64,000 nucleotides of DNA, taken from positions 128,318 through 192,317 of the forward strand of contig JBAZLM010000001.1 of assembly GCA_041650295.1 (NCBI GenBank), in the 5' to 3' direction. Shown here in pieces: positions 459 through 44,627 of the stretch (the stretch's first letter is position 1; the number at the start of each line of letters is the position of its first letter). Position numbers and translations under genes: made by a program. The notes below the pieces were generated by a model. The model was not told where the DNA came from. It was given only the letters and a program-made list of their open reading frames with translations, and did not search any database. The DNA comes from Candidatus Omnitrophota bacterium (GTDB taxonomy: Bacteria > Omnitrophota > Gorgyraeia > Gygaellales > Profunditerraquicolaceae).

Positions 459-840
459 GAACATAACCAGTGAATTTGATTTATTGAGGGTAAAAGCTCA
501 GGCGATTGATTTTATTAAACCTATCAAATTCCAGAATTCAGATCTCGAGAAATTAGCAGATTTAACATTTGAATTAGCTAAAGAGTTAATCTTTAATCAA
601 GTGGATGCTTATATCTGTTTAAATTTCTATAATTTTGGGCGGAAAAAAGGGTTAGAGATGTATGTATATAATAAAAATATGCCTTTAGAAAAAGCGCAAG
701 AAGCTTTAAATCATAACTGTTCTTTAAGCAAAGAGGGCATTTCTTTAGATAGAAAATCAGGATTTTTAGATAAATTTGAGTTAAAAAAAGAGATAAAATC
801 AGGTATAGAGGTTAATATTCTCAAGTGGTCAAAATTATAG
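439..840 (+). CDS. hypothetical protein (133 aa)
   Basis: ORF in track; no recognisable motifs. Confidence 0.25.
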   Translation: MLQFQGRNITSEFDLLRVKAQAIDFIKPIKFQNSDLEKLADLTFELAKELIFNQVDAYICLNFYNFGRKKGLEMYVYNKNMPLEKAQEALNHNCSLSKEGISLDRKSGFLDKFELKKEIKSGIEVNILKWSKL

Positions 841-1103
841 AAGAATCTACAAACCAAGAGAAAAAAGCAGGACAGGTAACCTTTGAAAGCGATAAAGTAA
901 CCGTTAATTTAAACTATAGTTTATGTACAAATTGCGGCCTCTGTATAAGTAATTGTCCGCATAATGTCTTAATTTGGCAGGACAGGGTATTTAAGGAAAA
1001 TAAACATAAAATTGATACTGTTGGAATTAGCGATTTAACTAAATGTAATGCTTGTGGAAGATGTCAGGAGATCTGCAAGCCCAGAGCAATAGTTATTAAA
1101 TAA
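825..1103 (+). CDS. 2[4Fe-4S] ferredoxin-like protein
   Basis: Two CxxCxxCxxxCP motifs are present (CTNCGLCISNCP and CNACGRCQEICKP). Confidence 0.6.
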   Translation: MVKIIEESTNQEKKAGQVTFESDKVTVNLNYSLCTNCGLCISNCPHNVLIWQDRVFKENKHKIDTVGISDLTKCNACGRCQEICKPRAIVIK

Positions 1104-4549: not shown

Positions 4550-6406
4550 ATGCTAGATTTTTTACCGAAACAGCTTTTTCTATTTGATCCGCTTTCGTTA
4601 TTCTTCCTTTTCGTTATCTTTATTGTTTCCCTTCCGTCAGCCATCTACTCTCTCGGTTATTTAAAAAAAGAGTACTCATCTTTTAAAATAATCCTTTCCT
4701 GGTTTTTGTTGGTCATTTTTGTTTTGTCTATGGTCGCGGTGGTGACTGTAGGCAATGTATTGCTATTTCTTGTGGCCTGGGAAACCATGTCCTTGGTTTC
4801 TTATTTTCTTGTGGTTTTCGATACCACGCATGAAAAATCAATACGGGCAGGCGCAATCTATATCATTATGACGCACATCGGAACGGCATTTTTGGTCGCG
4901 GCTTTTATGATCATGTATAAATATGCGCATTCATTTGATTTTATTGCCATAAAGAATGTTTGTCTTGTAATGCCGGTACTGACAAAAAATATTGTTTTCT
5001 TGCTACTCTTAGCGGGTTTTGGAACAAAAGCTGGTATTGTTCCTTTGCATATTTGGTTACCTTACGCGCATCCGCAGGCTCCTAGCCATATCTCTAGCAT
5101 TATGTCGGGCGTAATGATTAAGACCGCGATATATGGAATAATTAGGTTTGTAATATTTCTATTGGGTGTAAATTCTACTTGGTGGGGAGTTTTGATTTTG
5201 ATTTTGGCATTGATAACTTGTCTGGTAGGCGTGATTTATGCGCTCATGGAACGCGATATAAAGAGGCTGCTTGCTTACTCGAGCGTAGAAAACATCGGAA
5301 TAATATTATTGGGGGTGGGTTTGGCGATGTTATTGATGGCTATGAAGATGCCATATTTAGCCGTATTCTCTCTTATTGCAGGGCTATACCATTTAGTAAA
5401 TCATGCAATTTTTAAGGGGCTTTTATTTTTATGTGCAGGTTCTGTATATAAAGCTACAGGAACGCGTGATATTGAAAAATTAGGAGGTTTAATTAAGAAG
5501 ATGCCCCAGAGTGCGGTTTATTTTTTAATCGGCTCTATGGCAATTTCGGCATTGCCGCCATTGAATGGTTTTGTAAGTGAATGGTTGACATTGCAAGCAT
5601 TTTTTCATGGCGCTCTTAATTCAACAGGGGGGACTAAGCTTTTTCTAGGAATTTGCGCTGCAATGCTGGCTTTAACTGGTGGCTTGGCAGCTGCGTGTTT
5701 TGTTAAAGCTTTTGGGATGGTTTTTCTTGGGCTGCCCAGAAGCCATTATGTTCAAAGCGCCAAAGAAGCGCCTTTTTCTATGAACTCCGGCATGTTTTTT
5801 TTATCGTTTCTGGCAGTTGTTTTTGGAATAGCTGTAGGTTTCATAATAAAATTATTAGCAAAAGTTGCAGCGGGTGTAATGAATATTGATATAAGCAGTA
5901 TGAGTTTTTCATTGACGAATCTTATTCTAACTCCGCGGATAGGTTTGACTGCCGTAGGAGTAGGTAAAAGTATATACCTATCTACGCCCATGCTTGCCCT
6001 GGTATTAGCAGCAATGGGATTGGTAGGTTTTGTTTTATACAAATTATTTGGAAAAGGTAAATTGATAATTTATAAGATTTGGGATTGTGGTTATTATAAA
6101 TTAGATTCGCGTAATGAATATACGGGTACGGCATTTTCAAAGCCATTTAGAATCGCTTTTAGTTTTTTCCTGTTGCCTTATCGCAAGACACAAAAGATAA
6201 GGGAGTCATTCTACCATATTAAATCATTTGCCTATGAAACACATACAACGCCTGTGTTTAAGAAATATATTTATGAGCCCTTGGTTGCCTTAGTGTTAAA
6301 ATCTGCTAAGTTTATGAGGAGAATTCAGCCGGGCAGTATTCATTTGTATCTGGCGTATATTTTTTGCACGCTTCTGTTGTTAATTATATTTATGGATAAA
6401 TTTTAA
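4550..6406 (+). CDS. Hyf/Hyc-type membrane subunit (HyfB/HycC/NuoL-like antiporter-like subunit)
   Basis: GTKAGIVPLHIWLPYAHPQAPSHISSIMSGVMIKTAIYG is the NuoL/M/N (Mrp antiporter) signature; 618 aa polytopic membrane protein. Confidence 0.7.
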   Translation: MLDFLPKQLFLFDPLSLFFLFVIFIVSLPSAIYSLGYLKKEYSSFKIILSWFLLVIFVLSMVAVVTVGNVLLFLVAWETMSLVSYFLVVFDTTHEKSIRAGAIYIIMTHIGTAFLVAAFMIMYKYAHSFDFIAIKNVCLVMPVLTKNIVFLLLLAGFGTKAGIVPLHIWLPYAHPQAPSHISSIMSGVMIKTAIYGIIRFVIFLLGVNSTWWGVLILILALITCLVGVIYALMERDIKRLLAYSSVENIGIILLGVGLAMLLMAMKMPYLAVFSLIAGLYHLVNHAIFKGLLFLCAGSVYKATGTRDIEKLGGLIKKMPQSAVYFLIGSMAISALPPLNGFVSEWLTLQAFFHGALNSTGGTKLFLGICAAMLALTGGLAAACFVKAFGMVFLGLPRSHYVQSAKEAPFSMNSGMFFLSFLAVVFGIAVGFIIKLLAKVAAGVMNIDISSMSFSLTNLILTPRIGLTAVGVGKSIYLSTPMLALVLAAMGLVGFVLYKLFGKGKLIIYKIWDCGYYKLDSRNEYTGTAFSKPFRIAFSFFLLPYRKTQKIRESFYHIKSFAYETHTTPVFKKYIYEPLVALVLKSAKFMRRIQPGSIHLYLAYIFCTLLLLIIFMDKF

Positions 6407-6410
6407 AATA

Positions 6411-7331
6411 ATGAAAATTATATTAATTTTATTGCAATTGATTTTTTTTATTGTGCTTGCACCGTTTCTAAGTGGGTTGGTTGCTAAGCTAAAAAATAGC
6501 TTTAGGATGCGCAGAGGCCAAAGTGTTTTTCAACCGTATTACAATCTCATGAAACTTTTTTCTAAGGGTGAGGTTGTTTCTCAAACCGCTTCTTGGATAT
6601 TTAAAGTCACGCCTTTTATTGTAATTTCTTCGACCTTAACTGTAGCATTGCTAGTTCCTGTGTTTATTTTATCTAGTCCATTGTACTGTATGAGTGATTT
6701 TTTAGCGATTATTTTTATTTTTGCTTTAGGCCGTTTTTTTCTTGCTTTGGCAGCCCTAGATACCGGAAGCTCTTTTGGCGGGATGGGTGCATCAAGAGAG
6801 ATGTTTATCTCAAGCTTAGTGGAGCCGGCTCTTTGTTTGGTAGTATTTTCTATTTCTATGCAATTCGGGTCAACAAATATTTTTGTTTTTAGCGGCATGC
6901 ATGCGGTATCTGTTTCTTCTATCGTTGCTGCAATTGCTTTATTTCTAGTTGTTATTGCCGAGACATCGCGTATTCCGGTGGATAATCAAGAAACACATCT
7001 TGAATTAACTATGGTACACGAAGCGATGGCGTTGGAATATTCAGGTAGGTCTCTTGCTTTAATAGAGATGGCTGCGCATATAAAACAAATGATCTGGTTT
7101 TTTTTGATTGCCCAGATAATTTTCCCCATTGCTGTTTTAAGCTCGATTAATTTAACAGGGTTATTTTTTTGGGGATTATGGTATTTGGCCAGGATATTTA
7201 TTATTGTTATAACAGTGGCTCTGGTAGAAGTCTTGGTTGCCAAGATGCGATTATTTAGGGTTGCTGATTTCTTAGGATTTGTTTTTGTGTTAGGGGCCAT
7301 TGCTACTGTATGTGCAATTTTAGGAGTTTAA
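6411..7331 (+). CDS. Hyf/Hyc-type membrane subunit (HyfC/HycD/NuoH-like)
   Basis: 306 aa membrane protein; FQPYYNLMKLFSKGE is NuoH-like; gene order follows the HyfB-like gene. Confidence 0.65.
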   Translation: MKIILILLQLIFFIVLAPFLSGLVAKLKNSFRMRRGQSVFQPYYNLMKLFSKGEVVSQTASWIFKVTPFIVISSTLTVALLVPVFILSSPLYCMSDFLAIIFIFALGRFFLALAALDTGSSFGGMGASREMFISSLVEPALCLVVFSISMQFGSTNIFVFSGMHAVSVSSIVAAIALFLVVIAETSRIPVDNQETHLELTMVHEAMALEYSGRSLALIEMAAHIKQMIWFFLIAQIIFPIAVLSSINLTGLFFWGLWYLARIFIIVITVALVEVLVAKMRLFRVADFLGFVFVLGAIATVCAILGV

Positions 7332-7332
7332 G

Positions 7333-7968
7333 ATGCAGGTTATAATCTTATTTACAGTTTTAGTTTCGACTTATCTTATGGTGATTGCCAAAAGAACGCC
7401 AGCTTTAATTAGAAGTTTTCGTTATCAATCGTTTTGCCTTTTTTTGGCTACGCTTATTCTCGCGTTGCGTGAACATCAGCTGGATCTGTATGTAGTCTCA
7501 GGGTTGTTATTTATTTTAAAAGTAGTTTTTATCCCGCAGTTATTATATCGCACCATAAAAAAAATAAAAGCTTCTGAGGAATTAGGATTATTTATTAATC
7601 CCCAGTTATCTTTATTATGGGCTTTAGGGTTTACTTATTTATCTTGGGTTTTTAGCGCGCATTTAATTGGTCAAGGTAATGAAATTAGGGTTATTATGCT
7701 GGCAGTGGCTTTTTTTGTGGTATTAGCCGGTATATTTTTGATGATCTTTAGAATGACTGCCCTTGCTCAAATTATCGGGTTATTGGTAATGGAGAATGGC
7801 ATATTTTTGCTGGCCTCAATGGTCTCTGGCGGAATGCCGTTTTTTGTTGAGATTGCCATATTTTTTGACGTATTTGTAAGTGTTTTGATTATGGGTTTTT
7901 TTGTTTATAGAATTAACAAGTTTTTTACGCATATTGATGTGAATAAACTTTCGCGCCTAAAAGGATAA
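7333..7968 (+). CDS. HyfE-like membrane subunit
   Basis: 211 aa; the C-terminus YRINKFFTHIDVNKLSRLKG closely resembles the HyfE C-terminus (..RTHGTLDVNNLTALKG). Confidence 0.6.
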   Translation: MQVIILFTVLVSTYLMVIAKRTPALIRSFRYQSFCLFLATLILALREHQLDLYVVSGLLFILKVVFIPQLLYRTIKKIKASEELGLFINPQLSLLWALGFTYLSWVFSAHLIGQGNEIRVIMLAVAFFVVLAGIFLMIFRMTALAQIIGLLVMENGIFLLASMVSGGMPFFVEIAIFFDVFVSVLIMGFFVYRINKFFTHIDVNKLSRLKG

Positions 7969-7972
7969 TTTA

Positions 7973-9430
7973 ATGCAGATATTTTTTATTTTAGGAATTC
8001 CAATATTGTTGGCAGTAACGTGTTTGTTGATTAGAAGACAGAGGTTTCTGGGTATATTAAATTGTGTTGGTTATTTGGTGGTTTTATTTTTAAGCGTAAT
8101 TCTTTTGAAGCAGATAGCTTTATCAGGATCTACTAGATCATTTCTGGGGTTTATATGCCTGGATGCCTTGAGCGTATTTTTTATTTTTGTTATTGCCGTG
8201 GTTGTTTTTGCTTCGGCTCTATATTCGGTAGGGTATATAAAAAAAGACATAGAGAAAGGGATTATATCCCAGAAGAAAGCTAGCACTTATTATCTTCTTT
8301 TTAATCTATTCTGTTGTTCAATGTTTTTTGTCCCGGCAATGAATAACCTGGGCATGCTCTGGGTGGCTATCGAAATGACTACGCTTATTTCTGCGTTTTT
8401 AGTAGGATTTTACAATAAAAAAGAGTCTGTAGAGGCTGCTTGGAAATATATAATTATTTGTTCAGTGGGAATAATTTTTGCGCTTTTAGGCACAATCCTT
8501 TTTTCTTATGCTTTTTCAATTTCTGGGCTTTCGAAAAGCTTAAATTGGTCGGATATGGTTGGGGTTGCGCAGATATTAGATAAAAATATACTCAAAATAG
8601 CTTTTATTTTTATTTTAGTTGGTTATGGAACAAAGGCTGGGCTTGCGCCTATGCATACTTGGTTACCGGATGCTCACAGCCAAGCGGTGGCTCCAATTAG
8701 CGCGCTTTTATCCGGGGTTTTATTAAAAACTGCAATTTATGCAATTTTGAGATTTGGTATCATCATAATTAAGAGTGTTGGTTTCGCGTATTTTGCGCAC
8801 TTAATGATTCTTTTAGGAGTTATTTCTTTGGTAATATCCAGTGGTTTTATTTTAGTCCAGAAAGATTTAAAACGCCTCTTGGCTTATAGCAGTATTGAGC
8901 ATATCGGGATAATTGCTATCGGTTTTGGTTTGGGCACTCCTTTGGCTTGTGCCGGTGCCCTACTGCATGTTTTTAACCATGCCGTGACCAAGTCTTTAAT
9001 GTTCTTTGGGGCAGGAAACATCGTTAGTTTTTATAGAAAACATAATATGAATGCGATTAGGGGAGTAAGTAAAGCGCTCCCTTTTACTGGTATGATGATG
9101 TTTCTGGGTGTATTTGCGCTTACAGGTTTTCCGCCGTTTTCTATATTTATTAGTGAGATGATGATTATTATTGCTGCCTTTACCAAGAGTTCGTATTTAA
9201 TTGCTGCAATATTGCTACTATTTTTAGCAATTATTTTTGGAGCATTTATCAATCACTTTGGGAAAATGCTCTTTGGTAGTATTCCTAAGGGGATGACTAA
9301 AACTGGTGAACCACTAACCGGAAAGTTTGCGTTTTTGTTTTTAGGCTTATTGATATGTATAACAGGAGTTGCGTTCGTATTTATAAAAGGGGAATGGATA
9401 TGGGTTGTTCAGAAGTTATTTCTAATATAA
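7973..9430 (+). CDS. HyfF/NuoN-like antiporter-like membrane subunit
   Basis: GTKAGLAPMHTWLPDAHSQAVAPISALLSGVLLKTAIY motif; 485 aa. Confidence 0.7.
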   Translation: MQIFFILGIPILLAVTCLLIRRQRFLGILNCVGYLVVLFLSVILLKQIALSGSTRSFLGFICLDALSVFFIFVIAVVVFASALYSVGYIKKDIEKGIISQKKASTYYLLFNLFCCSMFFVPAMNNLGMLWVAIEMTTLISAFLVGFYNKKESVEAAWKYIIICSVGIIFALLGTILFSYAFSISGLSKSLNWSDMVGVAQILDKNILKIAFIFILVGYGTKAGLAPMHTWLPDAHSQAVAPISALLSGVLLKTAIYAILRFGIIIIKSVGFAYFAHLMILLGVISLVISSGFILVQKDLKRLLAYSSIEHIGIIAIGFGLGTPLACAGALLHVFNHAVTKSLMFFGAGNIVSFYRKHNMNAIRGVSKALPFTGMMMFLGVFALTGFPPFSIFISEMMIIIAAFTKSSYLIAAILLLFLAIIFGAFINHFGKMLFGSIPKGMTKTGEPLTGKFAFLFLGLLICITGVAFVFIKGEWIWVVQKLFLI

Positions 9431-10977
9431 AAAAGAGCCTGCCGGATTTTAGTGCGTTGTCGGTATTTCAGAATTATGCGGATGAGATTTGCATAAAAGT
9501 CAGTCCACAGGTTTTTAAGAATGTGTGTTTAGCTCTGCATAAAATGCTTCCTTCTCCGATCATGATGCTGTTTGCAGTTGATGAACGTAAGTTTTCGGGT
9601 GTATTTGTAGTTAACGCTGTGCTGGTGGATTTAAAACAAAGACAGTGGATTATTGTGAATATGGATATCCCACAGGAAAATCCATGTTTTGATTCATTGG
9701 CTAGAAATATGTATTCAGCTACTCTTTTTGAACGCGAGATTAAAGAGATGTTTGGTATCGAGCCTAAAGGTAACCCAAATTTAAGGCGGTTGAATTTGCA
9801 CGATGAGGTTTGGCCAGAAGGAAATTTTCCTTTACGCAAGGATTTTAAAGAAATGAATTCTGGGAGTTTAGGTGAATACAAGTTCAATCGAGTAGAAGGT
9901 GGGGGCATATTTGAAGTTCCGGTTGGTCCCGTGCATGCCGGAATTATTGGACCAGGTCATTTTCGTTTTAGTGTTGCGGGAGAGCCGATTGTAAATTTAG
10001 AGATTAGACTTGGATTTACGCATCGTGGAGTTGAGAAACTTTTTGAAGGTAAATCATGTGTTGATGCGATACGGTTTGCAGAGTGTATTTCTGGTGATGC
10101 GGTTTTTGCCTATAGCGTTGCCTTCGTTTCAGCTGCGGAAAAAATTTCCGGAATATTAATTCCTCAGAAAGCGGCTTATTTAAGAGGGATTTTTCTTGAG
10201 CTTGAGCGTATGTATAATCACGTTAATGATATTGGCGGTATGGCTTTAGATGTGGGATTTAGTTTTCCGGCTGCCTATGCTTCACTTATAAAGGAAGCGA
10301 TCTTGCAGCTAAACGAAAAGCTTACTGCTAGCAGGTATCTTAAAAAGGTTAATGTAATAGGTGGGGTTTCTATAGATATTGACCAGACAAAAAAAATAAT
10401 GCTTTTGGATTCTCTTAAAAAGATACAAAAGGATTTCAATGAGTTGGTTAAAATGTTAAATTTCAGTGTTTCTTTTATGGATAGAGTTGACACTACTGGT
10501 ACTTTAATAAGAAAGACTGCCCAGGATTTAGGTGTGGTTGGTCTCATCGCGCGTGCATCAGGTATTCCTGCGGACCTAAGAAAATATTTTCCTGGAGTAT
10601 ATAATCAAGTTAAATTTAAAATGATTACACGAGCGGGCGGGGATGCGCTATCAAGATTGGAGTTGAGATTTTATGAATTTGTTGAATCCTGTCGAATGAT
10701 TGAAGAATTTACCGCTAAGCTTGCCGAGGGTTTAGATATTAAAGTTAATTCGGTATTAAAGCAGGCAAGCGCGTTGGGTTATGTAGAAGGAGCCAGGGGG
10801 CCTGTTTTGTGTTGGCTTAAAGTAGATTCTAATGGCGTAATCCAAAGATGCAAGATTGTAGATCCTTCAAGTCATAATTGGCAGGGGCTTTCGTATGCAG
10901 TATTAGGTAATATTATCCCAGATTTTCCGCTTTGTAATAAAAGCTTTAATTTGTCGTATCCAGGAAATGATCTATAA
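9394..10977 (+). CDS. NuoC-NuoD-fused large-subunit homologue of group-4 [NiFe] hydrogenase (HycE/HyfG-like) lacking Ni-binding cysteines
   Basis: N-terminal NuoC-like region (FEREIKEMFGIEPKGNPNLRRL) and NuoD/HycE-like region (GPVHAGIIGPGHFRF...RLGFTHRGVEKLFE). The protein contains no CxxC pair anywhere: the L1 position reads AECISGDAVFAYS and the C-terminal position reads DFPLCNKSFNLSY. The start was chosen at the ATG after the RBS AAAGGGG (the track ORF begins at 9355, overlapping the upstream gene). Confidence 0.65.
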   Translation: MDMGCSEVISNIKKSLPDFSALSVFQNYADEICIKVSPQVFKNVCLALHKMLPSPIMMLFAVDERKFSGVFVVNAVLVDLKQRQWIIVNMDIPQENPCFDSLARNMYSATLFEREIKEMFGIEPKGNPNLRRLNLHDEVWPEGNFPLRKDFKEMNSGSLGEYKFNRVEGGGIFEVPVGPVHAGIIGPGHFRFSVAGEPIVNLEIRLGFTHRGVEKLFEGKSCVDAIRFAECISGDAVFAYSVAFVSAAEKISGILIPQKAAYLRGIFLELERMYNHVNDIGGMALDVGFSFPAAYASLIKEAILQLNEKLTASRYLKKVNVIGGVSIDIDQTKKIMLLDSLKKIQKDFNELVKMLNFSVSFMDRVDTTGTLIRKTAQDLGVVGLIARASGIPADLRKYFPGVYNQVKFKMITRAGGDALSRLELRFYEFVESCRMIEEFTAKLAEGLDIKVNSVLKQASALGYVEGARGPVLCWLKVDSNGVIQRCKIVDPSSHNWQGLSYAVLGNIIPDFPLCNKSFNLSYPGNDL

Positions 10978-10980
10978 ATT

Positions 10981-11499
10981 ATGATATATATACTGAAAAA
11001 TAGGATTTTAAAAGGGATAGTGACTAAACATATTGGTCCAAGTTTATCTAAAGAGATAGAATTGGTCGGTTTGGGATTGAAATCATTAATTCAAAAAAGA
11101 TTTGGTAGGTCTTTGCATATACGCCAAGTGGATACGGGTTCTTGCGGAGCTTGTGAATCAGAGATCATTTCAGCGAACAACCCGATTTATGATTTGCAAA
11201 GGTTTGGAATAAGTTTTGTTGCTTCACCACGCCATGCTGATGCGCTCTTGGTTACTGGCCCTGTATCTAAAAATATGCTTATTGCCTTAAAGAAGACTTA
11301 TGAGGCGATGCCTGAGCCAAAATTTGTGATTACCTGTGGAGATTGTGCTTTAGATGGAGGATTGTTTAAGGATTCTTATTATGTTTGTGGAGCAGTAAAG
11401 AATATATTGCCGGTAGCATTGCATATTCCAGGATGCCCACCTAGTCCGCTAGATATTATCCAGGTGTTATTAACGTTTCTACGGAAGAAGGAGCAATAG
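10981..11499 (+). CDS. NuoB/HycG-like small subunit (predicted [4Fe-4S] cluster)
   Basis: SCGACESE ... SPRHADALLVTGP ... MPEPKFVITCGDCALDGG ... IPGCPPSP retains the four Cys and the SPRxxD/GCPP motifs of NuoB and hydrogenase small subunits. Confidence 0.7.
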   Translation: MIYILKNRILKGIVTKHIGPSLSKEIELVGLGLKSLIQKRFGRSLHIRQVDTGSCGACESEIISANNPIYDLQRFGISFVASPRHADALLVTGPVSKNMLIALKKTYEAMPEPKFVITCGDCALDGGLFKDSYYVCGAVKNILPVALHIPGCPPSPLDIIQVLLTFLRKKEQ

Positions 11500-11503: not shown

Positions 11504-11860
11504 ATGAGCAAGTTTATTATTACAACGTTAATGCTGGTATGCAGCAATGTATTTATGACCTTTGCTTGGTATGGCCACTTAAAAAATTATAACGATAAGC
11601 CTTGGATCATCGCGGCTATAATCAGTTGGGGCATTGCTTTATTTGAATATCTTCTACAAGTACCCGCTAATAGGATTGGCCATCAGGCGATGAGTCTTGG
11701 GCAGCTAAAAATCCTGCAAGAGGTAATCACTTTATCAGTATTTGTGCCGTTTTGTATATTTTATATGAAGGAGGGCTTAAAAAAAGATTATCTTTGGGCA
11801 GCGTTGTGCATTTTGGCTGCGGCCTTTTTTATGTTCCGGGGTTTATTAGCTAAGGTATAA
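11504..11860 (+). CDS. small 4-TM membrane protein (DMT/DUF486-like)
   Basis: 118 aa hydrophobic protein (FMTFAWYGHLK..WIIAAIISWGIALFEYLLQVPANRIGH), immediately downstream of the complex. Confidence 0.3.
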   Translation: MSKFIITTLMLVCSNVFMTFAWYGHLKNYNDKPWIIAAIISWGIALFEYLLQVPANRIGHQAMSLGQLKILQEVITLSVFVPFCIFYMKEGLKKDYLWAALCILAAAFFMFRGLLAKV

Positions 11861-11863: not shown

Positions 11864-12367
11864 ATGTCTACTAGGTTAGCGCCTTTTTTAAAATTGTTAT
11901 TGTTTTTAGTTTGCGTTTTTTCTTTATTTATAATGAGGAAATTACTTAAAGATAATCTTAAGGAAGGTACCCAAGGGTCTTTTGGCAAAAGGGATGCTTT
12001 AGATTTGCCTAAGGGGGTTGAATGCTATTATCTGTCAGATTCTGTTTCTTGCGACGCACTATATAAATACGAAAGCCTGCTTGTTTCATCAACTCCGTTA
12101 CCAAGAATAATTGTTATTGAATTGAGTGAATTTAAAAGAATTGATGCGGCTGCCGCAGTGAAAGTAATTATTTTTTTTAGGTTTTGTGCACAAAAAAATA
12201 TTAAAGTAATTATAGTGTGTCGGCAGGACAAACTACCATTTTTATTAAGTAAAGAGGGTATTCATGATATTGTTGGGCCAAGACATATCGTTAAGGATCT
12301 TTGTAACGCAGTAGCTTTGTCGAAAGAATTACTAAAAGAAGAACCAATTGCTCAAGATAAATCATAG
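11864..12367 (+). CDS. membrane-anchored hypothetical protein (possible STAS-like fold)
   Basis: N-terminal TM helix; no clear motif; a hairpin terminator follows (12388-12415). Confidence 0.25.
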   Translation: MSTRLAPFLKLLLFLVCVFSLFIMRKLLKDNLKEGTQGSFGKRDALDLPKGVECYYLSDSVSCDALYKYESLLVSSTPLPRIIVIELSEFKRIDAAAAVKVIIFFRFCAQKNIKVIIVCRQDKLPFLLSKEGIHDIVGPRHIVKDLCNAVALSKELLKEEPIAQDKS

Positions 12368-12690
12368 ATTGTCGTTAATGATTACTTAATGTCCGCCCCT
12401 GTGAGGCGGACATTCTATATTCCGTTATCTCTCAATCAGTTGCATTGTTTCCAGCCAAAGAACACCGGACAAAACGGACATATTTTCACCTAACTTTATC
12501 TCTTGTAGTGTCTAATTTCTTGATATTTGCCCCATTTCCTATATAATTAGCCTGTTAGTATTTAGAGATACTGTTATTACCTATAGCAACGTGCGCAACC
12601 AAATAAACCCGTCATTTATGGCGGGTTTTCTATTTGCGTATATTTTTGTGATTTGTGGTAGAATATGCCTGTAAAAGGAGGCAATACCCT

Positions 12691-17987: not shown

Positions 17988-18041
17988 GTGACGGTATTTT
18001 TGAAAAGATATTCTTTAGAAAGTTTTTATGCGGAGGTAATT

Positions 18042-19372
18042 ATGGATATAACGATGAAAATAATGATAGATACAATTTGGGTCTTGATTACGGCAAAAAT
18101 GGTGTTTTTTATGAACTTAGGGTTTGCCATGGTGGAATCAGGATTTGCGCGTTCTAAGAATTGCGTAAATATTCTTTCCAAGAATTTTGTTGTTTTTGCG
18201 GTTTCTTCGGTGGGGTTTTTACTTTTAGGCTGGGGTCTTATGTTTGGCGATGGTAATGCTTGGGTGGGATTAAAGGGACTTTTTTTGCTAGTGGCCTGGA
18301 TAATTCTCCGGCCATCGGAGAAGCTTACAAAGGAGTTTATTCGGCTCTTTCTTGGACCGGGGTACCAATGTGGGCGAAATTTTTCTTTCAGCTAGTTTTC
18401 TGCGGCACTGCGGCAACCATTGTCAGCGGTGCAGTTGCTGAACGCATTAAATACGGTACCTTTATTGTTTTTTCATTTTTAATGGCGATGTTTATTTATC
18501 CGATTGTTGGCCACTGGATTTGGGGTGGTGGGTGGTTACAAATTAAAGGATTTTTTGATTTTGCCGGTTCTTCAGTGGTACATTCCGTAGGCGGATGGGC
18601 GGCTTTGGCCGGTATCTTAGTTTTAGGTCCGCGCTTTGGTAAGTATACTAAAGAAGGAAGGATGAACCCGATCCCTGGCCATAATTTATCGATGGCTACT
18701 TTAGGAACTTTCGTACTTTGGTTTGGGTGGTTTGGTTTTAATCCTGGTTCGACGATGTCGGCAGACCCTGTCGCCATTAGCCATGTTGCCATTACCACGA
18801 ATATGGCTGCAGCGATGGCTACGATTAGTGCAACAGTTCTGTCTTGGATATTATTAGGTAAGCCAGATTTAGGAATGACTTTAAATGGTTGTTTGGCTGG
18901 ATTAGTGGCAATTACGGCATCTTGCGCTTTTGTAAGCGTACCTAGTTCTTTGATTATTGGTACGGTTGCCGGAGTGCTAGTAGTTTTTTCGGTAATTTTC
19001 TTTGATAAGGTGCGGCTTGATGATCCGGTGGGGGCACTTTCTGTACATTTAGTAAACGGAGTTTTCGGTACTTTATGTGTGGGACTATTTGCTCAAGATA
19101 AAATTGCCGGAATCTCGATTCATAATGGTCTTTTTTACGGCGGCGGTTGGAAACTTTTTACTACCCAGCTTGCCGGAGTATTAGGAGTAGCCGTTTTTAC
19201 TTTTGTAATCTCTTTGATCTTTTGGGTTATTTTAAAGTATACGATGGGAGTGCGTGTGAGTTTAAAAGAAGAGATTGAGGGGCTAGATATCGGCGAGCAC
19301 GGTAATTCTGCCTATCCTGAATTTTCAGGTAGAAAACCAGCGTACTCTTTTATTAAGACCGGTAAAGAATAA
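18042..19372 (+). CDS. amt: ammonium transporter Amt, reading frame interrupted by an apparent -1 frameshift near 18276-18287 (GGG/T7 homopolymers)
   Basis: RBS GGAGG and ATG at 18042. The N-terminal part (track ORF 17988..18395) contains [31 protein letters not shown]. The C-terminal part (18260..19372, another frame) contains [32 protein letters not shown], typical of Amt/AmtB. The two frames overlap around a T7 run. Confidence 0.6.
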
Positions 19373-35600: not shown

Positions 35601-35817
35601 ATATTTTTTGTTACTTTGTAAGATTTAGCCAGAAAATTTAAAGTATTTAAAATTTCCCTTGCATTTTGCAAAGCTTTATAATATCATTAAAAACTAAGGG
35701 GGAGTAATGCGCAAAATTTTTTTATCTTCTAAGATATTCCAGTGCAGTGGTTAAGCTAATTGCCTGGATTTTTTTGTGCCCGGAATTTTAGGTATTATTT
35801 TTAATTATAATATTTTT

Positions 35818-36747
35818 ATGAAGGAGGCAGGCGTGAAAAATAAAATTGTTCTATTCATTTTAGTCAGTGCGTTTTTTAGTGGCATCTTAGGTTGTGATAA
35901 AATTAAGCAGATGACTGCTCCTAAATCAGAAGCAAAAGTTGTAGCGCAGGGGCCAGCTATTCAGCCCAGGGGACCGATTGTAGCCAAAATAAATAATATC
36001 GCTATTGGTTTAGACGATCTTAACGATGAAATAGAGTTTTATAATGCTAATGTTCCTGAAGAGAGCCCAGAGTTAAAAATTACTACTAGAGAACAAAAAA
36101 TAAACTATTTAAAAAATGAAGTTATCCGTCGTACTTTAATTTATCAGCAGGCTTTAGATAAAGGTTTAGATAGAAATGATGAGGTGCGCCAGGCAGTTGA
36201 GAAGAATAAACGAGAGATGATGGTGATGCAAAATGTGCAAGATATTGTTAAAAATATTACTGCTTCCTCTAAAGAAGTAGAGGATTATTACAATACCTAT
36301 AAGGATCAGCTAAAAGAACCCGAAGAGCGTAAGGTTTCTGAAATTGTGGTTGGCTCGGAACAAGAAGCCAAAGATCTTTTAGTGCAACTTTTGCAGGGCG
36401 CAAACTTTACTACTTTAGCTAAGGCTAATTCTAAAGCACCTAGTGCTGCAGATGGTGGGGTTATAGATTTTGTAGCCAAAGGTGTAAAATCGGAACAATT
36501 TGATGAAGTAGTTTTTGCTTCGACCTTAGACATAGGTGAGTTAAGTAGTATATTTAAGACTCCCGAAGGTTATAGTATCATTAGATTAGATGCTAAGCGT
36601 GGTGGTAAATTAAAACCGCTTTCTGAGATGTGGGATGATATTAATCGAGGGTTAGTTTATATGAAACAACAGCAGGCAATTGAAGAACTCGTCGGCAAAC
36701 TTTCTCGAGATGCTAAAATCGAGGTTTCTGAAGGGGAGATTAAATAA
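35818..36747 (+). CDS. PpiC-type (parvulin) peptidyl-prolyl isomerase lipoprotein (SurA/PrsA-like)
   Basis: Lipobox ILGCD; C-terminal parvulin domain (KVSEIVVGSEQEAKDLL..GGVIDFVAKG..TPEGYSIIRLD). An alternative GTG start at 35833, five nt after AGGAGG, is likely. Confidence 0.55.
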   Translation: MKEAGVKNKIVLFILVSAFFSGILGCDKIKQMTAPKSEAKVVAQGPAIQPRGPIVAKINNIAIGLDDLNDEIEFYNANVPEESPELKITTREQKINYLKNEVIRRTLIYQQALDKGLDRNDEVRQAVEKNKREMMVMQNVQDIVKNITASSKEVEDYYNTYKDQLKEPEERKVSEIVVGSEQEAKDLLVQLLQGANFTTLAKANSKAPSAADGGVIDFVAKGVKSEQFDEVVFASTLDIGELSSIFKTPEGYSIIRLDAKRGGKLKPLSEMWDDINRGLVYMKQQQAIEELVGKLSRDAKIEVSEGEIK

Positions 36748-37643
36748 TGGCCATTGAAAAACAGAAGCTCATTTTGATTAGTGGAGTGGTCTTAGGAATT
36801 GTGGCGATTGTGATGACTAAGATGTATTTGGATCAACAGCAAGAAGAGATTCGGGCTAAGGCAAAAAAAGCAGTTGCTAATATGCAAGCTAATCAAGTAG
36901 CGGTTCTGGTGGCCAAAAAAGATATTCCGGTTGGCGTGGTGATTGATTCGAATATGTTAGAAACTGCAATTGTTCCAAATCAATATGTGCAGCCTCAAGC
37001 GGTAACTTCTTTGGATAGAATTGCTGGAATGATTACAATTGCACCGATTGCTAAAGATGAACAAGTCAGCCTTTCTAAATTAGTCACTAGCAAAAAAGCG
37101 GGCGGGGGAGATCTCTCGGGAGTAACTCCGGCTGGTAAAAGGGCAATTTCGATTGTTGTCGACAATATCTCTTCTTTATCTGGGATGATTAGACCTAATG
37201 ATTATGTTGATGTATTGGCGACGATTCAGGTTCCAGCGCACGGTGCTGATGGGCAAGTTGTAAACCAGATGGCAGTAGTTCCTTTATTTCAAAATATTTT
37301 AGTTTTAGCGGTAGGATCTGATACTGGTGGGCCTGCTTCAGATAGTAGTCGTTATGCAGATAAAGGACCTTCCGGTAATACTTTAATTACTTTGGCTTTA
37401 GGTCCTCAAGAATCTAATTTAATAGCTTTTGTTCAAGAGCAAGGCAAGATTCGTTTAATTATGCGGTCTCCGGCGGATGCTAAGGTTGAACAAATGCCAC
37501 CGGCTAGTTGGGATACATTATTTCAATATATTGCACCACAGCAACAGTTTAATCCCGATGATCAAGCTGAGCCGGTTGATACTACGGAGTATGTTGAAGT
37601 TTTACGTGGATTAAATAAAGAAAAAATCCCTATATCTAAATAG
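36747..37643 (+). CDS. cpaB: Flp pilus assembly protein CpaB/RcpC
   Basis: N-terminal TM helix, then a SAF-type domain (VAVLVAKKDIPVGVVIDSNMLE..VPNQY); position directly upstream of the secretin. Confidence 0.65.
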   Translation: MAIEKQKLILISGVVLGIVAIVMTKMYLDQQQEEIRAKAKKAVANMQANQVAVLVAKKDIPVGVVIDSNMLETAIVPNQYVQPQAVTSLDRIAGMITIAPIAKDEQVSLSKLVTSKKAGGGDLSGVTPAGKRAISIVVDNISSLSGMIRPNDYVDVLATIQVPAHGADGQVVNQMAVVPLFQNILVLAVGSDTGGPASDSSRYADKGPSGNTLITLALGPQESNLIAFVQEQGKIRLIMRSPADAKVEQMPPASWDTLFQYIAPQQQFNPDDQAEPVDTTEYVEVLRGLNKEKIPISK

Positions 37644-37658
37644 CATAGAAGGAGAAAA

Positions 37659-39257
37659 ATGAGAAAGTTATTTTTAAATCTAGTAATCGTAGCTACCTTT
37701 ATTACGGTTTTACCTTTTAAAGGATTTTCCGCCGGTGGAGCTGAAGAGGAGATAAAGCTTTATATTGGACATCCTCAAATTATCTCTGTGAGCTCTCCTA
37801 AGCGAGTGGCAGTGGGTAATCCAGAGATTGCCGATGTTGGTAATATTAGTAAAACCGAATTAACCGTTAATCCTAAAATAGCCGGATCGACTAATTTAAT
37901 TGTTTGGGATAATTTTGGTGAGCAGTCTTATCGGTTGAAGGTGTTTGCTGAAGATATTCATGAGATTAAGCGACGCATTGATAGCATACTTTCTACGTTA
38001 GATTTAACAGGGGTTTATACTAAAGCTGAAGAAGATGAAGCCCGAGTAGCACTTTTAGGAACTGTAAAATTTGCTAAAGATAAAGAAAAAATCACTACTG
38101 CTTTAGCGGGATTAAAAAGTAAGACCGTAGATTTAACTACGGTTAAGGAAGAAGAATCGGTGATTGAAATTGATGTCCAAGTAATTGAATTAAACTCTGG
38201 GTCTAGAGAAAAAGTAGGGTTTACTTGGCCTGAAAGTATTAATTTAACTGAGTTGGCTTCACAGGCAACTGCTGCTCCGGGAACCACATCTTTTGCAAAA
38301 TTATTTACTCTTGGTAATTTGACGCGAAATGTTTTTAATTTGAATTTAGATATGTTAGTTAAGGAAGGTAAAGCGCGCATACTTTCTCGTCCGCGACTTT
38401 CTTGTCAAAGCGGTAAGGAGGCTAAGCTAGTTGTCGGAGGAGAGGTCCCGATATTAAGTGGTTCCGTTACTCCTGGCACAAGCGGTCCAACTCCTGGGGC
38501 GACAACTGGTGGTTCTGTAGAATATAAAGAATATGGAATTATTTTAAATGTTAAACCGCAGCTTACCGATACCGGACGTATTCATCTTAATCTAGACGTT
38601 TCTGTAACTGATCTAGGAGAAGAGGTTAAAACAGATTACGCTTTAGCTTATAAAATGATTAAACGTTCAGCAACTACAGAATTATTCTTAGATAATCAAC
38701 AAACCATGGCCATTGGTGGATTGATTAAAAAGAAGTCAGCTGATCAATTAAGAAAAGTTCCTTGGCTCTCTGATATTCCAGTTTTAGGAGTATTTTTTAG
38801 GCAAAAAATTTCCGATCAAGGTTCAACCAGTGACCAGTCATTTACTGAGGATACAGAACTTTTTATTACTCTTACTCCCACGGTAATAAGTAGAGTGAAG
38901 CCACAGGAAAAATCTCTAAAAATACTGTCTTCCAATATTCCTTCAGTTGGTGATGACAAAATAACTGATCCAGTTTTAAAATATTCGAAAATAATTCAAA
39001 AAAGAATTTTGGAAAAATTAGTTTATCCGGCAGAGGCCAAAGATGCTGGTTTTCAGGGAGCGGTAAGATTAAGTCTTAAGCTTTCTGCACAGGGAGATTT
39101 GTTAGATGTAAAATTAAAGGATTCTTCTAGTTTTAGAGTGCTTGATGAAGGAACATTAAAGACTGCCAAGGAGATCTCTCCGTATCCACCATTTCCTCCT
39201 GAAATAAAGGATAAAGAGGTTTGGGTGGAGATTCCAATAATTTATCAATTAGAATAA
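37659..39257 (+). CDS. cpaC: Tad secretin CpaC/RcpA with C-terminal TonB_C-like extension
   Basis: Signal peptide; secretin core (..GGLIKKKSADQLRKVPWLSDIPVLGVFFRQK..TELFITLTPTVI). Extra C-terminus YPAEAKDAGFQGAVRLSLKLSAQGDLLDVKLKDSSSFRVLDEGTLKTAKEISPYPPFP resembles the TonB C-terminal domain. Confidence 0.7.
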   Translation: MRKLFLNLVIVATFITVLPFKGFSAGGAEEEIKLYIGHPQIISVSSPKRVAVGNPEIADVGNISKTELTVNPKIAGSTNLIVWDNFGEQSYRLKVFAEDIHEIKRRIDSILSTLDLTGVYTKAEEDEARVALLGTVKFAKDKEKITTALAGLKSKTVDLTTVKEEESVIEIDVQVIELNSGSREKVGFTWPESINLTELASQATAAPGTTSFAKLFTLGNLTRNVFNLNLDMLVKEGKARILSRPRLSCQSGKEAKLVVGGEVPILSGSVTPGTSGPTPGATTGGSVEYKEYGIILNVKPQLTDTGRIHLNLDVSVTDLGEEVKTDYALAYKMIKRSATTELFLDNQQTMAIGGLIKKKSADQLRKVPWLSDIPVLGVFFRQKISDQGSTSDQSFTEDTELFITLTPTVISRVKPQEKSLKILSSNIPSVGDDKITDPVLKYSKIIQKRILEKLVYPAEAKDAGFQGAVRLSLKLSAQGDLLDVKLKDSSSFRVLDEGTLKTAKEISPYPPFPPEIKDKEVWVEIPIIYQLE

Positions 39258-39258
39258 A

Positions 39259-41421
39259 ATGTCCAAAACAATTGTAATATTTAGCACTAAAGGCGGTGTT
39301 GGCAAGACTTTAGTGGCAACTAATTTAGCAGTATCTTTGGCGCAAGTTGGCAAGCGCGTCTGTTTGATTGATTTAGATACGCAGGTTGTCGGCGACATGG
39401 CGCACATGTTGGGTTTAGTTCCGCAGCGGTGTTTAGCGGATCTGATGAATATTCTAACTAAACAGCCACAGTTAACCAAGAAAAAAGATTTTATCATTAG
39501 AAGCGATTCTGCGAATATTGATTTTATTCCTGGAGTATTGAAACCACAACAATCTGGCTACCTTATTGCTGAAAAAATTCCCGAAGTTTTTTCTTTTTTA
39601 GAAAAAGATTATGATTATATTGTAGTGGATGCGGGAAAAAGTTTTAGCGATGTTTTTCTTTCCACATTAAGTCAAGCTAATTTGATTTTACTAGTCGCCA
39701 CCCCGGATGTGCTTTCCATTGAGCAAACTAAATGGGCTTTAGAGACATTGCAGATGTTACATTTTCCGTTAAGCATGGTAAGGTTAATACTCAACAGGTC
39801 AGAGTCTTTATCTAGTATTAGTTGGCAGGAGATTCGGGTTAATTTGCCAGTTAATATCATTGAAAAAGTTCCTTCCGACGGTAAATTAGTAAATTTGGCG
39901 GTTAATCGTAGGGTGCCTGTAGTGATTGATGCGGCACGTTCTAAAATTGCATTGGCTTTTTCTGAACTCGCCGATATTTTAATTGCAGATAAAGGAATAT
40001 TTACGGAACGAAAAAATATTGACCAGATTAAAATGAAGGAAGTAGCTCGCGAAAAATCTGGTCAATTTTGGATGGAACAGGATCTTAATACTGGGGTGCT
40101 TGAGCCAGATACTTATGAAGGCCGGGATGAGATTTTAGTGCTTAAGCGTCGGATTCACAGCCGCCTTTTAGAAAACATGAAGATTAAAAGTATAGATCTT
40201 AATGTTTTTAGTGATCAAAAAAAAGCTAAAGATTTAAAAAATAGTGCAGAAGCGATGGTGAATAATCTTTTAGTTGAGGAGGCAGGTAGCTTTATCCCTT
40301 CTCAAGAAGTGCGCAAAGGCCTGGTTAAAGAGATATTAGACGAAGCCTTAGGATTAGGGGCTTTAGAGGATTTATTAGCTGATCCGGAAATTACGGATAT
40401 TATGGTTAATAATAAGGATGAGGTTTTTGTTGAACGTTTTGGAAAAATTGAACTGACGAATAAAAAATTTATTTCTAATGATCAGGTACGTACAATTATT
40501 GAACGTATTATTGCTCCGATTGGTAGACGTATTGATGAATCAGTGCCAATGGTTGATGCGCGTTTAACCGATGGTTCTCGAGTAAATGCAATTATTTCGC
40601 CACTATCTTTGACCGGTCCAACCCTAACGATTAGAAAATTTCGTAAAGAAAGATATCGGGTTAATGATTTATTGGCTTTTGGTGCGCTGAATACGGCGAT
40701 GGCAGATTTTATTAAAGCCTCGGTATTGTGTCGTAAAAATATGATTGTCTCTGGAGGAACTGGCTCTGGAAAAACTACAGTTTTAAATGCTTTGTCTGAA
40801 TTTATTCCCGAAGGAGAAAGAATTATTACCTTAGAGGATGCGGCGGAACTTAAATTAAATCAACGACATTGGATTAGATTAGAGTCTCGACCGATGAATA
40901 TTGAAGGTAAGGGTGGGTTAACCATTCGAGATCTTTTTCGTAATACTCTACGTATGCGTCCAGATCGAATTATCGTCGGAGAATGCCGTGGTTCTGAATC
41001 ACTAGATATGTTGCAAGCGATGAATACTGGCCACGATGGCTCTATGACCACTATTCATGCTAACTCGGCTTCAGATGTTTTAAGCCGACTGGATTCTATG
41101 ATTTTGATGTCGGGAATTGAGTTACCGGTGAGAGCAATCCGAGAGATGGTTTCTTCAGCGGTTGATATTATTGTGCACACTGCTCGGCTTAGCGATGGTT
41201 CACGTAAAGTTTTGTCAATTGCTGAAGTGGCCGGAATGAAGGACGAAGCACATATAAATTTAAGCGACATCTTTGTTTTTACGCAAACTGGCGTAGATGC
41301 TCAAGGAAAGGTGCAGGGGTATTTTACTGCTACTGGTTATAAACCTACATTCTTAAATGAAATTAGGATGCGGGGCGTTGAAATTTCTGATGATGTTTTT
41401 AAGCCTACCAAATCTAAATAA
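39259..41421 (+). CDS. fused TadZ/CpaE-like ParA ATPase + TadA/CpaF secretion ATPase
   Basis: N-terminal deviant Walker A (STKGGVGKT, MinD/ParA). C-terminal half carries the T2SSE/VirB11 motifs: Walker [10 protein letters not shown], Asp box [10 protein letters not shown] and His box [16 protein letters not shown]. Confidence 0.75.
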
Positions 41422-41427
41422 AACTTA

Positions 41428-41772: not shown

Positions 41773-41855
41773 GCTCTGCATATATGTCCAATCCAGCTTG
41801 ACAAAATCAAAAAAAAGATATATTCTATAGTGCAAATGTCCAATCTGGAGGATGT

Positions 41856-43820: not shown

Positions 43821-43902
43821 AGCGTAAATGATATTGATTATTTGATTTTAAGGTGGTATATTTTAGATAGTTAAAGTTAGGTAATTATTCGGGAGCTGAT
43901 AG

Positions 43903-44207: not shown

Positions 44208-44231
44208 TGAAATTATTTTTGAAGGAGAGAG

Positions 44232-44613: not shown

Positions 44614-44627
44614 TGGAGAGGGTAAAG

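Follow-up and report, generated by a model that had tools for sequence, protein, structure and literature searches.

A predicted energy-converting-hydrogenase-related (Ehr) complex lacking nickel-iron ligands, encoded in a Candidatus Omnitrophota genome

A cluster of six genes lies on the forward strand, at positions 4550–11499, of a 64,000-nucleotide stretch of a Candidatus Omnitrophota genome (assembly GCA_041650295.1, contig JBAZLM010000001.1, positions 128,318–192,317), hereafter the window, whose own numbering is used throughout. The cluster is very probably an ehrABCDLS cassette, specifying an energy-converting-hydrogenase-related (Ehr) complex and not a hydrogenase. The predicted product is a membrane-bound complex of six subunits, which appears to be derived from a group-4 (4f-like) [NiFe]-hydrogenase and almost certainly does not handle hydrogen; a gene for a small DMT_6 membrane protein follows. 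A mechanism in which electron transfer drives an ion pump is given an even chance, and the complete statement, Ehr identity and pump mechanism taken together, is held with the same evenly balanced confidence. A first-pass annotation, made from the letters of the window, had proposed an Ehr-like complex rather than a hydrogenase. This proposal is borne out by homology, cysteine loss in the large subunit, the metal ligands of the small subunit, gene order, the existence of a cysteine-less radiation of relatives and the lack of maturation genes nearby.

All six reading frames are intact and their junctions are tight or overlapping. EhrA (4550–6406, 618 residues) is an antiporter-like membrane subunit of the HyfB/HycC/NuoL type (Pfam Proton_antipo_M, 7.5e-58) and is followed by EhrB (6411–7331, 306 residues), a membrane subunit resembling NuoH, HycD and HyfC (Pfam NADHdh, 4.1e-31). 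EhrC (7333–7968, 211 residues) is a HyfE-like membrane subunit whose C-terminal half resembles NuoK (NCBIfam hydrogenase 4 membrane subunit, 5.3e-25; Pfam Oxidored_q2, 6.7e-4), and EhrD (7973–9430, 485 residues) a second antiporter-like membrane subunit, similar to HyfF (Pfam Proton_antipo_M, 8.4e-52; NCBIfam hydrogenase 4 subunit F, 2.5e-136). The hydrophilic part consists of EhrL (9400–10977, 525 residues), a NuoC–NuoD fused large subunit devoid of NiFe ligands (Pfam Complex1_30kDa and Complex1_49kDa, the latter at 1.4e-34), and EhrS (10981–11499, 172 residues), a NuoB-like small subunit with four cysteines (Pfam Oxidored_q6, 4e-29). These Pfam and NCBIfam assignments, together with alignments, confirm the colinearity with hyfB-C-E-F-G-I that had been noted earlier. 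The order of the six genes is as first described, and the cassette is followed by the DMT_6 (DUF486) gene, a seventh gene retained in an Omnitrophota subclade. The best named NCBIfam models are hydrogenase-4 subunits B, E and F for membrane proteins and NuoD and NuoB for the hydrophilic ones. EhrA attains 628 bits with hydrogenase 4 subunit B (cutoff 667), EhrL 197.9 bits with NuoD (cutoff 360) and EhrB 36.1 bits with NuoH (cutoff 305); the exception is EhrS, which exceeds the cutoff of the subfamily-level NuoB model NF005012 (124.9 bits versus 116). As nearly all scores fall under the curated cutoffs, the genes belong to the superfamily and lie outside its named equivalogs.

The start of ehrL deserves comment. 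The longest uninterrupted frame spans 9355–10977 and would encode 540 residues; the first-pass start, 9394, is an ATG two codons upstream of 9400. An identical protein (P0001, 100% identity) is public as a 525-residue product of a Candidatus Omnitrophota metagenome-assembled genome (MAG) and begins at M16 of the long frame, that is, at position 9400, which is for this reason the most likely start. The 3′ end of ehrD thereby overlaps ehrL by 31 nucleotides, and the same 31-nucleotide overlap is present in two related loci, L005 and L007.

The large subunit is unmistakably hydrogenase-related and has lost its metal site. In a phmmer search of all PDB sequences its closest chain is Escherichia coli HycE (7z0s_E, 4.3e-58, 200.6 bits), whereas NuoD chains score 2.3e-36 or weaker and at most 128.9 bits. 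HycE, HyfG and NuoCD, taken from the hyc, hyf and nuo loci of E. coli, were aligned with EhrL and three relatives using MAFFT. The former L1 motif, AECISGDAVFAYS (residues 227–239, 10078–10116), is aligned with SDRVCGICGFAHS of HycE: where the hydrogenase reads RVCGICGFAHS, EhrL has CISGDAVFAYS, a serine and an alanine standing in place of the two cysteines. The former L2 motif coincides with the very C-terminus of the protein, NLSYPGNDL (residues 517–525, 10948–10974), and is placed opposite HycE DPCYSCTDR, the two cysteines being replaced by serine and glycine. All four ligand positions are thus non-cysteine (S, A, S, G). EhrL contains no CxxC pair and matches neither of the group 4 motifs, L1 RxCGxCxxxH and L2 [DE][PL]CxxCxx[HR]. 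The earlier observation of a large subunit without any CxxC pair therefore stands, being upheld by both MAFFT and phmmer alignments. The counterpart of DPC..C had been misplaced at DFPLCNKSF, a stretch whose HycE counterpart, DAPLIIGSL, precedes the true L2 by about 10 residues; the cysteine-less conclusion is unaffected. Furthermore, EhrL has no C-terminal extension for an endopeptidase, while HycE and HyfG have 32 residues after the motif, and the tail beyond L2 amounts to 0 residues in all 85 large subunits considered (those of the related loci and the window). The NiFe(CN)2CO cofactor almost certainly cannot be bound by such a protein, and H2 would thus be neither made nor consumed.

Two ways of rescuing a metal site were considered. 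A hydrogenase with shifted motifs was ruled out, since the L1 and L2 positions agree in phmmer alignments with PDB chains, in MAFFT alignments with the E. coli proteins and in MAFFT alignments of 150 representatives. An alternative site built from the cysteines of ECISGD and PLCNKS was likewise ruled out: neither cysteine is kept even within the Omnitrophota clade, the positions being occupied by arginine in L009 and lysine in L012, and other lineages have isoleucine or valine at the second one.

The cysteine-less state is a stable trait. The 120 closest clusters at 90% identity, which are 66–100% identical to EhrL, all share the cysteine-less motifs, and 101 of them are exactly 525 residues long. 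This uniformity indicates that the state is fixed and under selection and is not a product of chance or sequencing error. Across the Ehr family the L1 consensus is E-[RSx]-[IV]-S-G-D, and the residues that distinguish Ehr from 4f-like proteins correspond to Asp233, Asp284, Pro489, Ser519 and Gly522 of EhrL. An AlphaFold2 model, built on a 49-sequence alignment, has a mean predicted local distance difference test (pLDDT) value of 92.3 and a predicted template modelling score (pTM) of 0.93; its best Foldseek match is again HycE 7z0s_E (template modelling score 0.95, root-mean-square deviation 2.1 Å, 29% identity). The only segment with pLDDT below 50 comprises residues 178–182 of the β1–β2 loop. 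This loop, GPVHAGIIGPGHFRF (residues 176–190, 9925–9969), carries Gly184 in place of a glutamate that is found in 99% of other Ehr large subunits, in 96% of the 4f-like hydrogenases and in HycE. By alignment it is the glutamate of the EPGH motif and the equivalent of MbhL Glu21, which is treated in hydrogenase work as the proton-relay glutamate. When the alignment columns with 85% or more conservation elsewhere in the family were scanned, Glu184 was the sole near-universal residue changed throughout the Omnitrophota clade.

In EhrS, Cys55, Cys58, Cys122 and Cys152 occupy the cluster-ligand positions of HycG, HyfI and NuoB, in agreement with the first-pass statement that the NuoB-like small subunit keeps its four cysteines, and they are predicted to ligate one [4Fe-4S] cluster. 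The subunit has the hydrogenase-type CxxC, unlike the CC motif of NuoB, and has no long C-terminal tail of the HycG/HyfI type. Its 172 residues contain no CxxCxxCxxxC motif, hence no NuoI/HycF domain, and phmmer searches with HycF, NuoI and HycB gave no match in or near the cassette of the window: a NuoI/HycF-type ferredoxin module is absent, neither fused nor encoded by a separate gene. Analogously, the four cysteines are present in each of the 10 scorable small subunits of the Omnitrophota clade (at least 150 residues) besides that of the window, and none of them has CxxCxxCxxxC.

Across the family the picture is more varied. All four cysteines are kept in 73 of 81 small subunits and lost in 8. 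The losses include loci from CPR (Candidate Phyla Radiation), a Thermoleophilia MAG, a Bdellovibrionales MAG and Methanosarcina (L025, L041, L043, L057, L066, L074, L079), with the patterns TCDD, DCGD, TEGD, SEGD and DTDN at the ligand positions. NuoB and NuoI are fused in the intact hydrogenases as well as in the Ehr of Firmicutes and Acidobacteriota; NuoB-only small subunits with four cysteines occur in Omnitrophota, Nitrospirota and Rokubacteria. The cofactor states accordingly range from NiFe plus three Fe-S clusters (4f-like), through three clusters without NiFe (Firmicutes and Acidobacteriota Ehr) and one cluster (Omnitrophota, Nitrospirota, Rokubacteria), to none (CPR, Methanosarcina). 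Through all of these states the cassette of six genes is conserved, as are the motifs of the Ser/Asp-lined pocket, SGD, ALDVGF and NLSYxGxDL. As a separate observation, a Chloroflexota locus (L086, 8633–12313) combines a large subunit bearing all four NiFe cysteines with an adjacent NuoB-like protein that reads ECED at the ligand positions.

The membrane subunits retain the residues associated with proton paths in complex I. EhrA keeps Glu78 in transmembrane helix (TM) 5, Lys160 in TM7, Lys191 in TM8, Lys289 in TM11 and Glu344 in TM12, which align with NuoM E144, K234, K265 and E407 and with NuoL K342; EhrD keeps E134, K221, K252, K340 and E395. Compared with HyfB, HycC and NuoL of E. coli, EhrA lacks ∼64 residues, roughly two helices, at the N-terminus, such that its TM5 glutamate is E78 versus E142, E135 and E144 in these proteins, and the short form recurs in L005, L007, L009, L012 and L039. 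EhrB maintains the acidic TM5–6 loop P-x-D-x-x-E...E-L...E-Y-S-G and the GASRE motif common to NuoH, HycD and HyfC, and the glutamate of VMENG in EhrC aligns with that of GLEIM in NuoK (the equivalent of NuoK Glu36). The C-terminus of EhrC, IDVNKLSRLKG, faces LDVNNLTALKG in E. coli HyfE, bearing out the striking conservation remarked on at first reading. As EhrA, EhrD, the NuoH-like loop and the NuoK-like glutamate keep their coupling residues, ion translocation by the complex is probably intact.

Cassettes of this kind are abundant. An exhaustive phmmer search with EhrL of 1.84 billion cluster representatives returned 791 proteins under an E-value of 1e-30, each representing a cluster at 50% identity. 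Among the best 150 of these, most carry E-[RSx]-[IV]-S-G-D...H and DFP[LV]xNKSFNLSY[SA]GxDL, whereas in ∼25 the motifs are intact (ERICGxC...H and ELCYxCxDR). When a single genome per GTDB species was scanned, at least 595 cassette loci emerged, of which the best 80 were examined in detail, their open reading frames being searched with the window proteins and with the Hyc, Hyp and Nuo proteins of E. coli. These 80 are distributed over Omnitrophota, Saganbacteria, Nitrospirota, Acidobacteriota, Verrucomicrobiota, Rokubacteria, Chloroflexota, Firmicutes, CPR, Thaumarchaeota and Methanosarcina. The order HyfB-NuoH-HyfE-HyfF-Large-Small holds in nearly all of them, with a variant that places the small subunit first. 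Seven loci (Thermincola, Desulfotomaculum, Ectobacillus, Negativicutes and others) have intact-cysteine large subunits in the same gene order, and a separate HycF-like gene is present in only four. Relatives of hyp, hycI, hycH and nuoEFG were not found within 10 kb of any of the 80 loci, nor in the 64-kb window; the check for maturation genes suggested at the outset was thus negative as far as the window and the surroundings of these loci reach.

The flanks were compared by clustering all open reading frames within 6 kb of the 80 loci. The recurring families are generic only: sensor kinases (13 loci), ABC-F ATPases (12) and ArsR-like regulators (10). A conserved redox partner was rejected on this basis. 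The ArsR-like helix-turn-helix regulator adjoins the cassette in its 10 loci (for example L087, 4235–4708), which belong to Acidobacteriota, Rokubacteria and one Omnitrophota; it is not found in the window. Two Nitrospirota loci, L034 (4826–19895) and L064 (1–13949), hold two complete ehr cassettes in tandem that differ at L1, one having SGT and the other SGD, and L005 is flanked by MscS and trehalose-synthesis genes.

In a neighbour-joining tree of 222 large subunits, with bootstraps carried out on subsamples, EhrL belongs to a clade of Omnitrophota sequences that also takes in a single MAG of Saganbacteria and two MAGs bearing the label Planctomycetales. Closest outside this clade is representative P0125, followed by loci from Nitrospira/Nitrospirota. 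The Omnitrophota(+Saganbacteria) clade has 100% bootstrap inside the cysteine-less radiation, the HycE/HyfG clade also has 100%, and the cysteine-less and 4f-like sequences group together with 78%. EhrL is placed beside loci from Nitrospira, Saganbacteria, ammonia-oxidising archaea, CPR and Verrucomicrobia, all lineages with published Ehr, in a tree whose backbone is weak and which includes no published EhrL accession; a search of the PMC6349859 supplements for the Saganbacteria contig as a published Ehr accession gave no match. The 186 cysteine-less sequences form one clade in the full tree, with subsample bootstraps of 4–7%, and at these values no claim is made for a single loss of the NiFe ligands. 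Distances from NuoCD increase from group 4a (1.64) to 4f-like (1.80) to Ehr (1.93), EhrL of the window being nearest to 4f-like, and they therefore lend no support to a position of Ehr between hydrogenases and complex I. The notion of Ehr as an evolutionary intermediate between the two, put forward in the first-pass annotation, likewise finds no support in the preference for HycE over NuoD, in the 4f-like grouping or in the missing Tyr/His quinone ligands of complex I.

The mechanism that we favour, a redox-linked ion translocator, can be outlined as follows. A soluble low-potential carrier, such as ferredoxin, would dock directly on EhrS; electrons would pass through the lone EhrS cluster to an acceptor in the remodelled EhrL pocket, lined by Ser231, Asp233, Asp284 and Ser519; the resulting change in charge would travel by way of the β1–β2 loop and EhrB/EhrC and reach EhrA and EhrD, the subunits that would move H+ or Na+. 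The whole process could also run in reverse. This mechanism is preferred because the four cysteines are strictly kept in the clade and the coupling residues are intact. Several points weigh against it. The electron path, with one cluster and no NuoI module, is hypothetical; the clade has dispensed with the otherwise near-universal Glu184; the members from CPR, Thermoleophilia, Bdellovibrionales and Methanosarcina named above keep the full cassette and the SGD/NLSY motifs in spite of losing all four Fe-S ligands; no dehydrogenase or other catalytic partner recurs beside the cassette in the 80 loci, and no electron donor or acceptor has been identified. In addition, monophyly of all cysteine-less sequences was recovered in 7 of 100 neighbour-joining bootstraps, from a tree that does not contain published EhrL sequences such as Geobacter GSU0739-45, and no biochemical or structural study of any Ehr was found in the searchable literature or the PDB. 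The retention of the whole cassette by cluster-free relatives suggests that the core function of the family may not need electron transfer.

The same Ehr-type complex might indeed be redox-inactive, acting as an Mrp-like cation/proton transporter or ion-homeostasis device whose EhrL/EhrS cap is structural or regulatory and whose Fe-S cluster is structural or a sensor. We hold this possible, at rather less than even odds, and it is a serious contender in view of the cluster-free relatives, the missing Glu184 and the absence of any conserved partner. It is consistent with the absence of a NuoI module, the fully equipped antiporter-like subunits, the pH-homeostasis role suggested for Methylacidiphilum ehrABCDLS (PMC6688271), the induction of the Methylocystis 'AARVS' complex at pH 5 (bioRxiv 10.1101/2025.08.29.672306) and the MscS and trehalose-synthesis neighbours of L005. 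It is harder to reconcile with the cluster ligands retained in every scorable small subunit of the Omnitrophota clade and in the great majority overall, with homologues of MrpB/C/E/F/G being absent, and with hydrophilic subunits that are constrained (66–86% identity across 120 clusters, with a near-invariant pocket) more strongly than a passive cap would seem to need. A bolder extension, unlikely in our estimation, is that the Ehr family as a whole, the Omnitrophota version included, is not a redox enzyme and represents a complex-I-type coupling machine driven or gated otherwise than by electron transfer. If so, the candidate driver would be a small ion or metabolite bound or turned over in the former NiFe pocket, and the adjacent DMT_6 protein might supply or remove the pocket ligand in the Omnitrophota subclade. 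The spread of cofactor states across the family offers a handle on whether Ehr function requires electron transfer.

More conventional identities fare worse than the redox-linked translocator. An NDH-1-type enzyme passing electrons from the NuoB-like cluster to membrane quinone is improbable: homologues are named 'NADH-quinone oxidoreductase subunit C' at NCBI, NuoD is the best NCBIfam match of EhrL and a NuoH-like subunit is present, but the NuoD score is far under its cutoff, EhrS has the hydrogenase-type motif, the membrane subunits are of the Hyf type, HycE is the closest solved relative by both sequence and fold, and NuoA, NuoJ, NuoI and NuoE/F/G are all missing. An ungapped phmmer alignment with Thermus thermophilus Nqo4 (2fug_4, offset +24) does match Asp139 with Asp284 of EhrL; it also places Gly232 at Tyr87 and Ile183/Gly184 at His38/Gly39. 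The complex I quinone ligands Tyr87 and His38 are therefore absent from the aligned EhrL sequence, and a complex I-type quinone site was rejected. A working [NiFe]-hydrogenase of the Hyf/Hyc or 4f type with unconventional metal ligands is still less credible, a very small probability being left to it. Colinearity with hyfBCEFGI, a short match of EhrL residues 224–290 to the N-terminal part of Pfam NiFeSe_Hases and the ∼10% of close homologues that regain one cysteine at the first L1 position (SECVCGD) speak in its favour; the four ligand positions are nevertheless non-cysteine here and clade-wide, there is neither a C-terminal peptide nor a HycF/NuoI module, hyp and hycI are missing from the window and the surroundings of the related loci, and relatives with intact ERICGxC/ELCYxC exist and are clearly distinguishable. 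Equally slight is the chance of a decaying, functionless remnant of a hydrogenase operon. Catalytic ligands, NuoI module and conserved glutamate have all been lost, yet the six frames are intact with tight or overlapping junctions, the 120 related clusters are of constant length, at least 595 loci across phyla conserve the order, the coupling residues persist, the fold is predicted with high confidence and Ehr subunits of Geobacter have been seen by proteomics (PMC7894505).

Public names such as 'NADH-quinone oxidoreductase subunit C' and 'Ni,Fe-hydrogenase III large subunit' mislead metabolic reconstructions, and Ehr genes of this kind should be counted neither as hydrogenases nor as complex I.

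Downstream of the cassette, the DMT_6 gene (11504–11860, 118 residues, Pfam DMT_6 4.8e-46) starts 4 nucleotides after ehrS. In the window and in L004–L008, loci whose other flanks differ, it comes straight after ehrS or overlaps it; it is absent from this place in the more distant Omnitrophota loci L009–L013 and L039. This distribution marks it as a subclade-specific addition, which may be a seventh component of the complex. A gene for a STAS-like protein (11864–12367, 167 residues; weak Pfam STAS match, 3e-5) follows 3 nucleotides later on the same strand; it is present in L004, from the same species, and not in L005 or L007, and its membership of the unit is doubtful. The best terminator-like hairpin is located at 12605–12628. 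A small 2x[4Fe-4S] ferredoxin gene (825–1103, forward strand) lies 3.4 kb upstream of the cassette, with CarD and other unrelated genes in between, and of the other loci only L013 and L032 have a similar gene in the vicinity of the cassette. The ferredoxin could be an electron donor; it was not counted as part of the system because unrelated genes intervene and its position is not conserved.

Elsewhere the window carries genes for nitrogen assimilation and for nucleotide synthesis, besides a Tad pilus cluster and a giant open reading frame. An ammonium transporter gene (17988–19372, forward strand) is split over two overlapping frames, 17988–18395 matching positions 2–71 and 18260–19372 positions 75–399 of Pfam Ammonium_transp, a split that reflects a frameshift, a pseudogene or a mistake in the assembly; genes for P-II, GS-III and GOGAT come after it. 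The Tad/Flp-type pilus cluster (35776–53787, forward strand) features unusual fusions, namely a secretin with a C-terminal TonB_C domain (37659–39257) and a ParA/CpaE-like ATPase fused to a CpaF-type T2SSE ATPase (39259–41421), and several adjacent frames have no Pfam match. A c-di-GMP-I riboswitch (54731–54822, forward strand, 59.5 bits) is found ∼170 nucleotides upstream of the giant frame (54993–64000, forward strand), which encodes at least 3002 residues, runs off the end of the window and has as its sole Pfam match Peptidase_C39-like at residues 175–253.

Comparison with characterized systems places the Omnitrophota complex among several relatives. Complex I/NDH-1 (NuoB, C, D, H, K, L, M, N) has homologous subunits, the same chain of charged residues in its antiporter-like proteins, a flexible β1–β2 loop and an aspartate at the position of Nqo4 D139; it differs from Ehr by Tyr87/His38, NuoA, NuoJ, NuoI, the N-module and the CC motif of the small subunit, which is CxxC in Ehr. 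Searches at the cassette with E. coli NuoA, NuoJ and NuoI gave no matches. For Mbx/Mbs, the membrane-bound sulfane reductase of Pyrococcus, the structure paper reportedly proposes that the substrate reacts near the proximal cluster. Mbs (PDB 6u8y) is likewise a hydrogenase-derived respiratory complex without a working NiFe site, but it is a 13-subunit, Mrp-linked assembly with a NuoI-like subunit, and its similarity to EhrL is much lower than that of HycE (2.2e-20 versus 4.3e-58). As for the Mrp antiporter, only MrpA/D-like subunits are represented in the cassette, alongside NuoB/C/D/H-like ones, and there is no Pfam match to other Mrp subunits. Among PDB chains, no Ehr-like protein ranks above formate hydrogenlyase or complex I.

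E. coli hydrogenase 4 and formate hydrogenlyase (HyfBCEFGI and HycCDEG; PDB 7z0s) share with Ehr a colinear core and the NuoC–NuoD fusion. Unlike the Omnitrophota complex, they possess a NiFe site, the 32-residue C-terminal peptide cleaved by HycI, HycF/HyfH, HycB/HyfA, HyfD and a formate dehydrogenase partner. Closer still are the intact-cysteine relatives (L050, L061, L065, L072, L077, L080), which are assumed to be group 4f (Ehf) hydrogenases. They have in common with the Omnitrophota Ehr the gene order, the signatures DFP[LV]xNKSF and VGPVHAGIIEPGHFRF and the lack of a C-terminal extension; they differ in keeping ERICGxC...H and ELCYxCxDR and in mostly having a NuoB–NuoI fused small subunit or a separate HycF-like gene.

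The closest counterpart is Ehr itself, which is said to have been first described in Geobacter sulfurreducens by Coppi and reportedly surveyed by Marreiros et al. in 2013. The subunits and their order are the same: NuoL-like, NuoH-like, HyfE-like, NuoL/M-like, NuoCD-like large and NuoB-like small, the Omnitrophota version likewise being without NiFe cysteines in the large subunit and retaining the Fe-S ligands in the small one. Geobacter encodes a NuoL-like EhrA, a HyfE-like EhrC, EhrL and EhrS (PMC7894505), the published gene order in Methylacidiphilum is likewise ehrABCDLS (PMC6688271), and Margulisbacteria Ehr comprises NuoB, sometimes fused to NuoI, a NuoC–D fusion, HyfB, HyfF, NuoH and HyfE (PMC6349859, Supplementary Note 4). 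Papers on Nitrospira, ammonia-oxidising archaea and CPR present the same cysteine-less proteins, with the function stated as unknown. The 'group 4f [NiFe]-hydrogenase' of Methylocystis, with its 'AARVS' signature and about 16–20-fold induction at pH 5 (bioRxiv 10.1101/2025.08.29.672306), may really be an Ehr, as judged from its signature, which matches the cysteine-less L1 AARVSGD of L078 and L083 (L081 reads AARISGD). The Omnitrophota locus accordingly adds no new type of system to a family that is already described and widespread; no description of Ehr in Omnitrophota was found in the searchable literature. It departs from other Ehr in several respects: EhrS is unfused, in contrast with the NuoI-fused small subunits of Margulisbacteria, Firmicutes and Acidobacteriota, Glu184 is replaced by glycine, the L1 arginine is often cysteine, EhrA is shortened and DMT_6 is appended in a subclade. 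What the locus documents in Omnitrophota is a minimal version of Ehr, in which there is a single Fe-S cluster and both the NuoI module and the relay glutamate are missing.

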